A DNA stretch of 64,000 bases from an uncultured Rhodobacteraceae bacterium (GTDB lineage: Bacteria; Pseudomonadota; Alphaproteobacteria; Rhodobacterales; Rhodobacteraceae): NCBI GenBank assembly GCA_937146765.1, contig CAKZRP010000068.1:4530-68529 (forward strand), written 5' to 3'. Shown in pieces: positions 51,423-54,410 of this stretch. The notes under the pieces were generated by a model. It saw only the letters and a list, made by a program, of their open reading frames with translations, made no database searches and had not been told where the DNA came from. The translations under genes were made by a program, and so were the position numbers. The first letter of the stretch is position 1. Every line of letters begins with the position of its first letter.

Positions 51423-51713
51423 GGCGGTCTCCTTCGCGGGGGCTTGGCCGGGGTCTTGCAGGTCTATCGCGCAAAACGCCTGGTGCCGCAAGCCGGGTGG
51501 CCGCGCGGGTGGGGGCGAGGACGCGCGGGAGGGCGAGGCTGGTGGCCACGGAATCCGAAGTTGCCAACCCGCCGCCCTTGGCACGCGGAGCGAGCAGAGA
51601 ATCACCATTCTGCAACCCTCCGGCATCCTTGCAGGGAAGTTATTCAATTCCATAATGGCGCTTTGCAATAATGGATGTGTGAATAAATTTGTGGATTTCC
51701 TGTGGGCAACTTG

Positions 51714-51723
51714 AATTGCAATT
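51714..51723. promoter_or_regulatory. AATTGCAATT palindrome in the AT-rich region upstream of the repeat-peptide ORF
   Basis: Perfect 10-bp palindrome, identical to 13921-13930. It lies about 136 nt upstream of the ATG at 51859, within a strongly AT-rich tract (about 51640-51860). Confidence 0.4.
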
Positions 51724-51858
51724 AAATATCAATTTATTATTAATCAATATTAAGGTAAGGTTTATTGTTTAAATCAGATTGGCGATCACAATTCGCTTGA
51801 ATTATTTTCTGTGGATGGCAGGTTTTGGGTATCGAATTTTTAGACAGGGAGAAATGTC

Positions 51859-52089
51859 ATGGTTGCACTGAAAGAATCCGCCCAGGTTTCCGACGCAAAC
51901 CTTGCGGCTGGCGGCGACGCCTTCGCAGGTGAGCATGTGGGGCTGTTCAGCTCCACCTGTCTTGGCGGCGAACATGCAGGAGAGCAGGTATCTCTTTACA
52001 GTTCCACATGTATTTCTGCGGAACACCGCGATATGCATACCGGTGACGCCACCTTCATGGTTTCGTCGACCTGCCTGAAGGGCCTCTGA
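51859..52089 (+). CDS. 76-aa peptide with three (G/A)EH...(F/Y/V)SSTC(L/I) units; candidate multi-core precursor peptide
   Basis: The sequence is MVALKESAQVSDANLAAGGDAFA-GEHVGLFSSTCLG-GEHAGEQVSLYSSTCIS-AEHRDMHTGDATFMVSSTCLKGL. SD agggag lies 7 nt upstream. The three SSTC motifs use different codons (AGC TCC ACC TGT / AGT TCC ACA TGT / TCG TCG ACC TGC), so the nucleotide differences are synonymous only in this frame. The antisense frame reads TGGA/TCGT/AGRR. Confidence 0.55.
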   Translation: MVALKESAQVSDANLAAGGDAFAGEHVGLFSSTCLGGEHAGEQVSLYSSTCISAEHRDMHTGDATFMVSSTCLKGL

Positions 52090-52127
52090 CATCCGGCTGC
52101 GGCCACGGCTGTCAGGATGCAAAATCA

Positions 52128-52155
52128 CGGGATCCGGATAGGTTTTCGGATCCCG
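52128..52155 (+). promoter_or_regulatory. Perfect 9-bp-stem hairpin between the peptide ORF and the downstream gene
   Basis: CGGGATCCG-gataggtttt-CGGATCCCG, located 39 nt after the peptide stop and 24 nt before the next start. No U-tract follows. Confidence 0.5.
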
Positions 52156-52178
52156 AAATTGGATTTCAAAAAGAGTGA

Positions 52179-53282
52179 ATGGGGGTGAAGTCTCAAATGG
52201 GGCAAGTGCTTTCTTTCGCGGCCGCGCGGCGGCAGGAACCGACCTCCCGCTTTCGGGGATTGATCGAGAGTTTCGGCTCCTGTCGAAAGGACAGGCTGGA
52301 TGTTCTGTGGATGAAAGAAAACGCGGAACTGCTGAATGTTTTTGAAACCTCTGGTTGTAAAATCAGCGAGTCGGAGCTTGATCCGCTGGTGCCCTTTTAC
52401 GAGGGCAGCCTGCGTCATTTGAATTTCTTCCGTCAATACTACAGGTTCATCCTCTCGATCAGCCTTGATCTGGAGGATCTGGGCCTGCCCGGCGACCGGG
52501 GCGAGGTGATGGCGCAGTGGGTGGCGCAACAGGATGTGATCGGCAGTGAGCTGTCGGATCTGCAACGGGCAGAGGGGCGTCGGTTGCTGGCGCGGCGCGG
52601 CGTGTCGATCCCCGCGGGGGCGCGGCATCGAGGGGCGGACGCGGGGTTGGATGACCGCCTGCGGGCCTTTCTGCGCCGCAGTGCGACCTTTGCGGTGCCC
52701 AACCGCAAGGCGGCCTATGAATTGACCCATGTGATCTTCTACCTGACCGAATATGGGCGTCGTCCGTTGTGTCTCGAGGCGGAGGAGCGGCAGAGCCTGA
52801 TGTTTGCCGGTCTGGTGGCCTATCTGGACCAGGACCTCGACCTGCTGGCGGAGATCTGCATTTCCCTGCGCTTCTGTGACGCGCCGGTTCCGGCGAGTTG
52901 GCAAGCCTGGTTGAGCCGTGGGGCCGGAGCGTTTCGGATCATTCCGACGCAGGGGCGGGTGGGGGCCGATGACTACCATCCGTATTTCATGAGCAATTGG
53001 TTTCAACTTCTGGTTGGACGCGAAGCCTTTTCTGGGGCAGACTTGCGCGGGTCAGTTGTGATTGAAGGGCCGCGTGGCCCAGGTGCGTTGAGAGGAGTGT
53101 CCATGGCCCTCTATACCTTGCTGGACCAGATGCCGGGCCACTGGAGCCGGTTGCGCGATCCTCTCTATCTGGCCCTGAGCGAGGAAGACGGCGCGCTTTT
53201 GCATGAGGTCGAGACCAGCACGCCGGTCTTTGAAGCTTTCTTTGAGAATTTTGCCCGGTTTGGCCAGGTGGGCGTCGCATGA
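52179..53282 (+). CDS. 367-aa cytoplasmic protein of unknown family, partner of the repeat peptide
   Basis: Long ORF with SD aagag before the ATG at 52179 (alternative ATG at 52197). No signal peptide or TM. I recognise no domain. It contains ExxH/DxxH-type motifs (YELTHVIFYLTEYG, ADDYHPYF). Confidence 0.65.
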   Translation: MGVKSQMGQVLSFAAARRQEPTSRFRGLIESFGSCRKDRLDVLWMKENAELLNVFETSGCKISESELDPLVPFYEGSLRHLNFFRQYYRFILSISLDLEDLGLPGDRGEVMAQWVAQQDVIGSELSDLQRAEGRRLLARRGVSIPAGARHRGADAGLDDRLRAFLRRSATFAVPNRKAAYELTHVIFYLTEYGRRPLCLEAEERQSLMFAGLVAYLDQDLDLLAEICISLRFCDAPVPASWQAWLSRGAGAFRIIPTQGRVGADDYHPYFMSNWFQLLVGREAFSGADLRGSVVIEGPRGPGALRGVSMALYTLLDQMPGHWSRLRDPLYLALSEEDGALLHEVETSTPVFEAFFENFARFGQVGVA

Positions 53283-54250
53283 GCCCGCTGGTGACAGGGG
53301 TGATGGCCGTGCTGGTCTATACCGGGCTGATCGCTACGGCGGATGGCATCACCAAGATGATGGCCTCCGCCTTTGCGCCTGCGCAGCTCTTTGCGGTCTC
53401 GGGTCTGCTGGTGGCAGGCTTCTGCGTTCTGGCCAGCAAGATGCGGCCGGTCGCGACCGGGCTGGGCACCCTCTGTCCGCGCGCGATGGCGGTTCGCTCC
53501 CTCGCCACGGTTCTGGCCTGTACCTGTTTCTTTTATGCCTTCCGGGCGCTGGAACTGGCGGAAGTCTTTGTCTTTGTTGCCCTGATGCCGGTGATGGCCG
53601 CGCTGTTGTCGGCACTGATCCTGAAGGAAAGCGTGCGGCCTGCGGTCTGGCTGGCCATCGCACTCGGGGCGGTTGGGCTTTTGGTGATGCAGCCGGCCCT
53701 CGCGGTGGGAGACACCATGGGCTCCTTTCTGGCGCTTGGGGGTGTCTGCTTCGGCACCCTGTCCATCGTGATGGCGCGCTACATCAGCCGGTTCGAGAGC
53801 AATGTGCTGGCGCAGGTCTTTTATCCCAATCTGACGCTGGGACTGGTCATGCTCTGCGTGCTGCCCTTTGTCTGGGAGCCGATGGCGGCGATGGATATGG
53901 GCTGGGTCGGCATCTATGCGGTGGTGCTGTTCGGCGCGCGATGGTTGCTGGTCACGGCGCTGCGTCACCTGCCGGCCTGGACAGTGACGCCGCTCTTGAA
54001 TCTTCAATTTGTCTGGATGGCCTTGATCGGACTGCTGATCTTTGGCGAGGTGCCGGCGCTGGCAACCTGTCTCGGCATGGCGGTGATCGCGGCCTCGGGG
54101 GTCTTCTTGGTCTGGGATCAGGCCCAGGGTCGGGACCGGCTTGCCGCGCCCGCAGGTGGCTGGCCGCCGCGGCGGGGTCGGCTTCCAGCCCGCAGCTTTC
54201 CGGAAAACGAGGCGCTGCGGTCGCGCACCAGTCTGCGGATGCGGCGTTGA
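53279..54250 (+). CDS. DMT-superfamily (EamA-like) transporter
   Basis: About ten hydrophobic helices in two EamA-like halves. The ATG overlaps the preceding stop (ATGA). The Arg-rich C-terminal tail may be over-extended. Confidence 0.8.
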   Translation: MSPLVTGVMAVLVYTGLIATADGITKMMASAFAPAQLFAVSGLLVAGFCVLASKMRPVATGLGTLCPRAMAVRSLATVLACTCFFYAFRALELAEVFVFVALMPVMAALLSALILKESVRPAVWLAIALGAVGLLVMQPALAVGDTMGSFLALGGVCFGTLSIVMARYISRFESNVLAQVFYPNLTLGLVMLCVLPFVWEPMAAMDMGWVGIYAVVLFGARWLLVTALRHLPAWTVTPLLNLQFVWMALIGLLIFGEVPALATCLGMAVIAASGVFLVWDQAQGRDRLAAPAGGWPPRRGRLPARSFPENEALRSRTSLRMRR

Positions 54251-54410
54251 CAGGGCGGTTGTCTGGCGGATTGCACGGTGGGAGGAAAGGCCGACTGACG
54301 GGCCAGCTGACGAGCCGACCGACAGGGCGTGACGGGCGCGAGGCGCATCGGGTGCCCCTATAAGGGGCGCCCCGGCAGGTCGGCTGGTTTAAGCCTTCAG
54401 ATAGACCCCG

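Follow-up and report, generated by a model that had tools for sequence, protein, structure and literature searches.

The window, a 64,000-nucleotide stretch of contig CAKZRP010000068.1 from an uncultured Rhodobacteraceae bacterium, carries a gene for a 367-residue protein of the Pfam family DUF6902, placed between a small repeat-peptide gene and a gene for an EamA/DMT (drug/metabolite transporter) protein. We find a plus-strand open reading frame (ORF) for such a repeat peptide in the gap between xthA and the DUF6902 gene at 64/64 Rhodobacterales loci, the window included. DUF6902 is homologous to DUF6895, one member of which was published in 2026 as a lasso-peptide epimerase, as cited in the reference lists of two articles (PMC13352647 ref 371; PMC13453073 ref 13). 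Judged by this comparison, the repeat peptide is probably a substrate or partner of DUF6902, and we lean towards a catalytic role for the protein. That the genes form a module for a ribosomally synthesized peptide that is modified post-translationally (RiPP), with a multi-core precursor, one dedicated modifying enzyme and an exporter added in about half of the lineages, is a reading to which we give an even chance.

The repeat peptide and its locus

The central features of the locus in the window are as follows.

51859..52089, plus strand: repeat-peptide gene, 76 aa, begins MVALKE, three repeat units, putative multi-core precursor
51943..51960, plus strand: repeat motif 1, LFSSTC, aa 29-34, preceded by the conserved G-E-H-V-G
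51994..52011, plus strand: repeat motif 2, LYSSTC, aa 46-51
52057..52074, plus strand: repeat motif 3, MVSSTC, aa 67-72, followed by just 4 residues (LKGL) and the stop
52128..52155, plus strand: intercistronic stem-loop between the peptide gene and DUF6902, 11-bp stem, 6-nt loop
52179..53282, plus strand: DUF6902 gene, 367 aa, putative peptide-modifying enzyme (from the ORF list)
53279..54250, plus strand: EamA/DMT transporter gene, 323 aa (from the ORF list; PF00892)

We mapped the window's nine proteins onto 63 genomic loci fetched from different species. The gene order is kept from Tritonibacter to Gemmobacter and Neogemmobacter: dksA, an FAD monooxygenase gene, xthA on the minus strand, a gap of 400-1100 bp, DUF6902 on the plus strand, an optional DMT gene on the plus strand, erpA on the minus strand, dgt and, where the fetched DNA reaches, argS. 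In the window, too, xthA (minus) flanks the locus on one side and erpA (minus), dgt and argS on the other. This synteny across the order indicates that the module is a fixed, vertically inherited part of its neighbourhood and not an inserted island, contrary to the initial annotation, which had pictured it as set among unrelated core genes. The same annotation had proposed that peptide, hairpin and cytoplasmic protein form a unit, and the peptide ORF at every Rhodobacterales locus bears this out. Its fuller layout of precursor, enzyme and exporter stands for the first two members; the exporter is optional.

The transporter ORF matches PF00892 (57.2 bits against a cut-off of 28.2) in two EamA stretches, the two-domain architecture of EamA/DMT exporters, and reaches no NCBIfam equivalog cut-off (best TIGR00950, 39.5 bits against 230). 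It is present at 30 loci, the window included; 31 loci have no room for it, erpA ending 2-284 bp after DUF6902, and three were left unscored. None of the seven non-Rhodobacterales DUF6902 loci examined carries it. The identity of the DMT proteins to the window copy tracks that of DUF6902 (r = 0.975), which suggests that the DMT gene is ancestral and has been repeatedly lost.

The stop codon of DUF6902 and the start codon of the DMT gene share ATGA at 53279-53282 (ATG 53279-53281, TGA 53280-53282), and through this overlap the DMT gene is translationally coupled to DUF6902 in the window. Both the overlap and the ORF coordinates had been reported before and hold on the sequence. The 367-aa ORF has probably been annotated six codons too long at its 5' end: translation possibly begins at Met7 (52197) and not at 52179, giving 361 aa; the closest homologues have 354 aa and mostly align from window residue 7 (two from residue 3); and the first 20 residues of the structure model have low predicted local distance difference test (pLDDT) scores. 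Three other long ORFs (52125-53006, minus; 53165-54007, minus; 53203-54363, plus) overlap the DUF6902 and DMT genes, on the other strand or in a different frame, and we take them as shadow ORFs typical of GC-rich DNA and not as genes. The PADLOC anti-phage defence and toxin-antitoxin models gave no match for the peptide, DUF6902 or the DMT protein, and Rfam gave none for an RNA at the locus.

Across the Rhodobacterales loci the repeat-peptide ORFs encode 65-295 aa with 3-14 repeats and typically start M-[TSV]-A-L-[RK]-K. Motif starts are mostly spaced 20-21 residues apart, and the repeats share the consensus G-[ED]-G-[VT]-x-[LM]-[FY]-[ST]-[ST]-x-x. The composition of 249 repeats aligned on the motif is given below by position.

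Position -5: Gly in 228/249
Position -4: E, A or D
Position -3: G or A
Position -2: V or T
Position 0: L or M
Position 1: F or Y
Position 2: S, T or P
Position 3: Ser or Thr in every captured repeat, S/T there being demanded by the search pattern itself
Position 4: G, T, C or S
Position 5: S, A, C or L
Positions 6-7: often A-P

The conserved stretch G-[ED]-G-[VT]-x-[LM]-[FY] adjoins a variable four-residue tail, and the spacers between repeats are hypervariable. Tails differ by lineage (SSGS, TSGS, SSGA, TTGL, TTSC, SSTC in the window's clade, PSGS, SSWS, LSHA, FSCS, SPSCA), and the repeats of one protein usually carry a single variant. The stop codon follows directly after the last motif in 34/64 ORFs. 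Most precursors have SSGS, TTGL or SSGA, and Cys is not a family feature; the neighbourhood check proposed earlier, for small Cys/Ser/Thr-rich ORFs and DMT genes, gives a small ORF at all 64 Rhodobacterales loci, with neither Cys nor the DMT gene constant.

The peptide ORF is under purifying selection (median ratio of nonsynonymous to synonymous substitution rates, dN/dS, 0.19; 45 pairs from 10 orthologues of the window's clade) and is therefore a real gene. Tandem Repeats Finder finds nothing in the DNA, which rules out recent tandem duplication as the origin of the repeats; they are features of the protein and not tandem repeats of the DNA. The repeat peptides have no match in Pfam, NCBIfam or PADLOC, and neither Pfam nor NCBIfam matches a Nif11- or NHLP-like leader in the partner peptides. 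Copy number differs widely among species. The longest precursor, in Salipiger thiooxidans (L026, 3031-3918), has 295 aa and 14 MFTSAA repeats, and another locus (L068) has a 207-aa ORF with 10 FASGS repeats.

DUF6902, its sister family and their small upstream ORFs

The initial annotation could place the 367-aa protein in no family. It matches DUF6902 (PF21843) over its full length (E 7.6e-121, 403.7 bits against a cut-off of 27; protein residues 7-360, model positions 1-350 of 351), and it matches DUF6895 in part (PF21836; E 1.5e-18, 67.6 bits; residues 79-246, model positions 75-242 of 289). By these profile scores DUF6902, the best family for the window protein, is a sister family of DUF6895 and not a member of it, and Pfam keeps the two separate. 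Their homology lies in a central core of about 190 residues (DUF6902 residues 92-285; hhalign probability 96.9%, E 1.4e-10), to which DUF6902 adds about 90 N-terminal and about 80 C-terminal residues with invariants of its own (K46, E50, R89, D127). NCBIfam has no model for the protein. When 1.84 billion cluster representatives were searched exhaustively with a profile, only 211 proteins came up at E<=0.001, so DUF6902 is a small and narrow family. Among the homologues listed, those with an organism name belong to Rhodobacterales (Phaeobacter, Leisingera, Tritonibacter, Shimia, Roseovarius, Sulfitobacter and others) or to unclassified marine metagenome-assembled genomes; the nearest is 98% identical to the window protein, followed by one at about 70%.

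A joint alignment of 38 DUF6902 and DUF6895 sequences (14-71% identity) has exactly seven invariant columns, which in window numbering are Y180, H184, D221, E225, W241, Y266 and H267. They fall in the blocks Y-x-x-T-H-x-V-F-Y-L-T-x-[FY]-G, D-L-x-A-E, W and Y-H. DUF6895 by itself, in an alignment of 21 members seeded by the bona fide family protein P0273, has nine invariants (P0273 numbering: E42, H146, Y175, H179, D220, E224, W244, Y284, H285), and 7/9 are kept in DUF6902. C227 is invariant within Rhodobacterales only. Three His motifs had been singled out in the window protein at first reading, and two of them contain the invariant H184 and H267. The motifs E181/T183/H184 and D264/Y266/H267 are conserved in Rhodobacterales, with E181 and D264 not invariant across the family; His79, in the third motif (SLRHLNFF), is not conserved.

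The AlphaFold2 model of the protein is all-alpha with 22 helices (pLDDT 92.8, predicted TM-score 0.90), and the protein has no transmembrane or signal segment, in agreement with the earlier prediction of a soluble, helical protein. In the model D221, W241 and Y266/H267 stand at the starts of helices 220-232, 239-249 and 266-278, and Y180 and H184 lie inside helix 176-189, a placement that would fit a single pocket. The structural check suggested at the outset yielded a confident model without a significant relative: Foldseek found nothing in the PDB at E<=0.001. Its best E-values (0.28 and above, non-significant) belong to peptide-binding ARM-repeat proteins, and the best query-normalised TM-scores among the matches listed belong to the alpha/alpha toroids A2ML1 (0.35) and the type II diterpene synthase Tpn2 (0.34), at E>=1.2. 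A search of PDB sequences with the DUF6902 profile at E<=10 returned nothing except one chance antibody match (E 0.96). The fold is therefore one with no detectable solved relative.

Divergent DUF6902 proteins (22-32% identity) still match PF21843. All seven distant loci examined lie in unrelated contexts and have a small ORF upstream of the DUF6902 gene, which at three of them (L064/L065, L067, L071) overlaps the start of the enzyme gene by 4 nt. Four of these partner ORFs (L064, L066, L067, L071) have the C-terminus (I/V)VYDDDKYFA(V/I)(M/V)K or KYVFIIK, VYDDDKYFAVMK, and that of L070 has two FTSQG-type repeats. At L071 (2229-5747) the divergent pair of DUF6902 gene and small ORF sits between reverse-transcriptase and resolvase genes, so such a pair can occur in mobile DNA outside Rhodobacterales. 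At two other loci (L069, 1931-3917; L072, 2042-3990) a gene for a ToxR/CadC-like protein of 531-541 aa, with a winged-helix domain and a transmembrane segment, precedes the small ORF.

DUF6895 genes, too, usually stand directly behind a small ORF, as at L073, L074, L075 and L076. In a metagenome sample a small ORF lies upstream of DUF6895 at 40/62 assessable loci or more. At about 31/62 it encodes 60-100 aa with a conserved N-terminal motif, L..L(K/Q).(S/A)(G/K)(I/L/V)(I/L/V), and a hypervariable, two-strand-like C-terminus; at another 8-10 the upstream gene encodes a small protein with a twin-arginine (TAT) signal. The DUF6902 partners of clade A carry the same N-terminal motif as the DUF6895 partner ORFs. 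Such a conserved N-terminus joined to a hypervariable C-terminus, with a conserved enzyme next to it, is what classically marks a RiPP precursor.

The small protein encoded ahead of one DUF6895 subgroup contains EILRRLGLRPDVP.DAWLVIV.CGSNASAL as a conserved stretch and in most copies bears a twin-arginine signal (L075, 4153-6906; L076, 4012-6978; L081, L082, L087, L089, L096, L097, L155). At L075 and L076, where gene calls are available, a radical SAM gene of about 500 codons lies directly upstream. These radical SAM/TAT-type clusters are a different cluster type, likewise undescribed.

Candidate chemistry and competing explanations

As in RiPP modules, a small gene is co-conserved beside the enzyme gene, and its product joins a conserved recognition part to a variable core. 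Close parallels are the multi-core RiPP precursors (cyanobactin PatE-type, thiovarsolin, multi-core microviridins and fungal dikaritins such as UstA), which share with the repeat peptide a tandem short core, a conserved recognition stretch in each copy and hypervariable spacers, with a copy number of 3-14 here. Those systems encode proteases, macrocyclases, YcaO proteins, ATP-grasp enzymes or oxidases, whereas here a single DUF enzyme stands without a protease; and their clusters are patchy and mobile, whereas the window module is syntenic and vertically inherited across an order. Unlike a lasso-peptide cluster, the DUF6902 loci show no lasso cyclase, leader peptidase or other protease, or RiPP recognition element (RRE) among the genes mapped or called there, and the substrate of DUF6902 would be a linear multi-repeat peptide and not a lasso.

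Several observations weigh against a RiPP module. The Rhodobacterales peptides lack the N-terminal leader motif found in other partner ORFs, and RiPP clusters are not usually inherited strictly vertically at a housekeeping locus. The DMT gene is absent from half of the loci, and DMT proteins are not typical RiPP exporters, ABC transporters being usual. Pfam detects no PqqD-like RRE domain, dedicated protease or ABC exporter in DUF6902 or its neighbours, although none of the three is obligatory for RiPPs. The Foldseek search of the PDB brought up no enzyme-like fold, and for E42 and H146, invariant in the 21 aligned DUF6895 proteins, no invariant counterpart was identified in DUF6902. Finally, the partner ORFs of L069 and L072 have Sec-like signal peptides, which fit a cytoplasmic enzyme less well.

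If DUF6902 is an enzyme, epimerisation is our leading guess, a tentative one, since no other activity is known in the superfamily and acid/base catalysis, with or without a metal, would suit the shared His, His, Tyr, Tyr, Asp and Glu residues. In the mechanism that we envisage, cytoplasmic DUF6902 would recognise each repeat of about 20-21 residues through G-[ED]-G-[VT]-x-[LM]-[FY] and modify the adjoining [ST]-[ST]-x-x tail, most likely by C-alpha epimerisation if the analogy with the DUF6895 lasso-peptide epimerase holds. His184/His267 and Tyr180/Tyr266 would then be the acid/base catalysts, and Asp221 and Glu225 helpers or metal ligands; the invariant His, His, Asp and Glu are also compatible with a metal-dependent mechanism. 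A possible functional analogue is MslH, a metal-dependent lasso-peptide C-terminal epimerase (PMC10406935). MslH is a cofactor-free acid/base epimerase that acts near the precursor C-terminus, and the motifs of most precursors here are likewise C-terminal. Its metallophosphoesterase-like fold is unrelated to DUF6902, which has no significant PDB match. General peptidases might, speculatively, release the units, no protease being encoded, and the last unit could usually be spared a C-terminal cut by an ORF that stops after the motif. Where present, the co-translated EamA/DMT protein would export the product. Observed here are the gene order, the coupling, the co-conservation, the homology, the conserved residues and the hairpin, whereas the peptide's role as substrate, the chemistry, the processing and the export are inferred.

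The same pair could support another chemistry, with DUF6902 cutting the polyprotein at the motif, for example beside Ser/Thr, into pieces some 20 residues long, or cyclising or dehydrating the Ser/Thr-rich tail; we regard this as unlikely. The repeat design implies release of units at a locus with no protease gene, position 3 of the motif is the most conserved core residue (though the search pattern itself demands S/T there), the invariant His/His/Asp/Glu set would suit a metal, and loss of the conservation seen at H146 of DUF6895 leaves room for the chemistry to have diverged. Yet the family as a whole conserves neither HExxH nor a Ser/His/Asp protease signature, Pfam detects none of the ATP or glutamyl-tRNA domains on which dehydration normally depends, and the partner peptides of clade A have a single C-terminal motif with no Ser/Thr. 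What functional information there is on the superfamily, moreover, is epimerase activity.

Alternatively, DUF6902 may perform no chemistry and be a helical-repeat binding protein, a scaffold, chaperone or regulator that docks on the motifs of a disordered repeat protein, the pair then serving some role in the cell, possibly one linked to the cell cycle. Its all-alpha fold, the peptide-binding ARM repeats at the top of the Foldseek list (none significant) and the absence of any cofactor-binding domain detected by Pfam are consistent with binding, as are the dispensable DMT gene, the vertically inherited housekeeping locus and the DnaA-box-like motifs of its promoter. We consider this rather improbable: even at 14% identity the sequences keep all seven polar or aromatic residues (Tyr and His twice each, Asp, Glu, Trp), as is typical for an active site but not for a binding groove; the homologous family includes an enzyme, according to the reference-list entries; and the partner C-termini are hypervariable, like RiPP cores.

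The initial annotation had raised a heme-oxygenase-like di-iron protein, which would oxidise a Cys/Ser/Thr-rich core. The ExxH-like E181-x-x-H184 and DxxH-like D264-x-x-H267, conserved in Rhodobacterales, recall such enzymes, but we reject the idea as highly improbable on the lack of a structural match (no Foldseek similarity to such PDB structures at E<=0.001, best TM-score 0.35) and on too few conserved ligands, with only two invariant His against the three His and three carboxylates needed and neither E181 nor D264 invariant across the family; most precursors, besides, have no Cys. A LanC-like cyclase acting on SSTC was likewise rejected, as most precursors lack Cys, the Cys-Cys-His zinc site is not conserved and there is no dehydratase.

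Should the RiPP reading hold in full, the pair might represent a new RiPP class belonging to the core genome shared by the Roseobacter group and its Rhodobacterales relatives, with 3-14 units of about 20 residues, a single enzyme of unsolved fold, probably D-residues in the product, a DnaA-box-like promoter and a conserved physiological role; we put this forward as a doubtful but possible view. Rather than a strain-specific antibiotic, its product would then be, for example, a signal, a cofactor or a metal-binding peptide, with a possible link to the cell cycle. If the reading of a precursor with its modifying enzyme is right, a whole Pfam DUF would gain a substrate and a function open to testing, the newly discovered peptide-epimerase superfamily would reach beyond lasso peptides to linear multi-copy precursors, and there would be a ribosomal peptide product as conserved as a housekeeping trait, a rarity among RiPPs. 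The Roseobacter group counts among the most abundant and best-studied marine heterotrophs. The unit of DUF6902 and repeat peptide sits at the same chromosomal place in every relative examined, yet we found it in no paper: our literature search returned nothing relevant on DUF6902, the repeat motifs or Roseobacter RiPPs, and DUF6895 only in the two reference lists (PMC13352647, PMC13453073). The system is small, one peptide and one enzyme, and occurs in Phaeobacter and Tritonibacter, genera that include genetically tractable strains, so the hypothesis is directly testable.

Hairpin, promoter region and terminator

The intercistronic hairpin is conserved as a structure, its sequence differing between species. 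The window region 52086-52180 folds at -37.4 kcal/mol (z = -3.79; 0/200 shuffles as good). At 37/60 loci the stretch from the peptide stop to the DUF6902 start contains a perfect stem of 9 bp or more, compared with 5% of shuffles and 6/60 coding controls of equal length. The window hairpin has no clean U-tract. It likely acts as a partial terminator or stabilises the mRNA, so that precursor mRNA exceeds enzyme mRNA.

A strong hairpin just 5' of the genes and behind a Ser-rich ORF could also mark a regulatory leader peptide, ribosome stalling on the Ser/Thr/Gly/Cys-rich repeats attenuating DUF6902 and a DMT amino-acid exporter; EamA-type transporters commonly export amino acids and their derivatives. 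We reject attenuation, which has a very slight chance at best, on the length of the ORFs (65-295 aa, not 15-30 aa), on conservation at the amino-acid level (non-Ser positions, namely Gly at -5, L/M and F/Y, are kept as amino acids, with dN/dS 0.19) and on the position of the hairpin, at least 39 nt past the stop and with no alternative pairing with the ORF. Nor are the partner ORFs of distant homologues Ser-rich, and a transporter is absent from half of the loci.

Upstream of the peptide gene and downstream of the transporter gene, the window has these further features.

51640..51858, plus strand: AT-rich promoter/regulatory region of the peptide gene (promoter scan and sequence)
51678, 51690 and 51701, plus strand: three direct TGTG(A/G)nnnAA-type repeats, degenerate and DnaA-box-like, spaced 11-12 bp
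51711-51740, plus strand: sigma-70-like -35/-10 pair (promoter scan)
51847-51852, plus strand: GGGAGA, ribosome-binding site of the peptide gene, read from the sequence
54351..54371, no strand: inverted repeat GGTGCCCCT ATA AGGGGCGCC, 9 bp, GC-rich, between the convergent DMT and erpA genes

From the AT-rich promoter an operon of peptide gene, hairpin, DUF6902 and DMT gene would be driven, with the hairpin probably keeping peptide mRNA above enzyme mRNA. The TGTG blocks are conserved in an alignment of nine orthologous upstream regions. In the 300 nt upstream of the peptide gene at 64 loci we counted the DnaA-box-like motif TGTGGA(T/C)AA, the reverse complement of TTATCCACA: the 19.2 kb of upstream DNA hold 40 boxes and the other 530 kb hold 2, an enrichment of about 550-fold. 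Counted from the peptide start, perfect boxes sit near -185 and at about -110 to -120, in fixed orientation in 39/40 cases. DnaA or another factor may thus control the operon or the divergent xthA. A replication origin in the spacer between xthA and the peptide gene is ruled out, as GC skew is positive across the whole window. At the far end, the inverted repeat at 54351-54371 is a probable bidirectional terminator that closes the operon.

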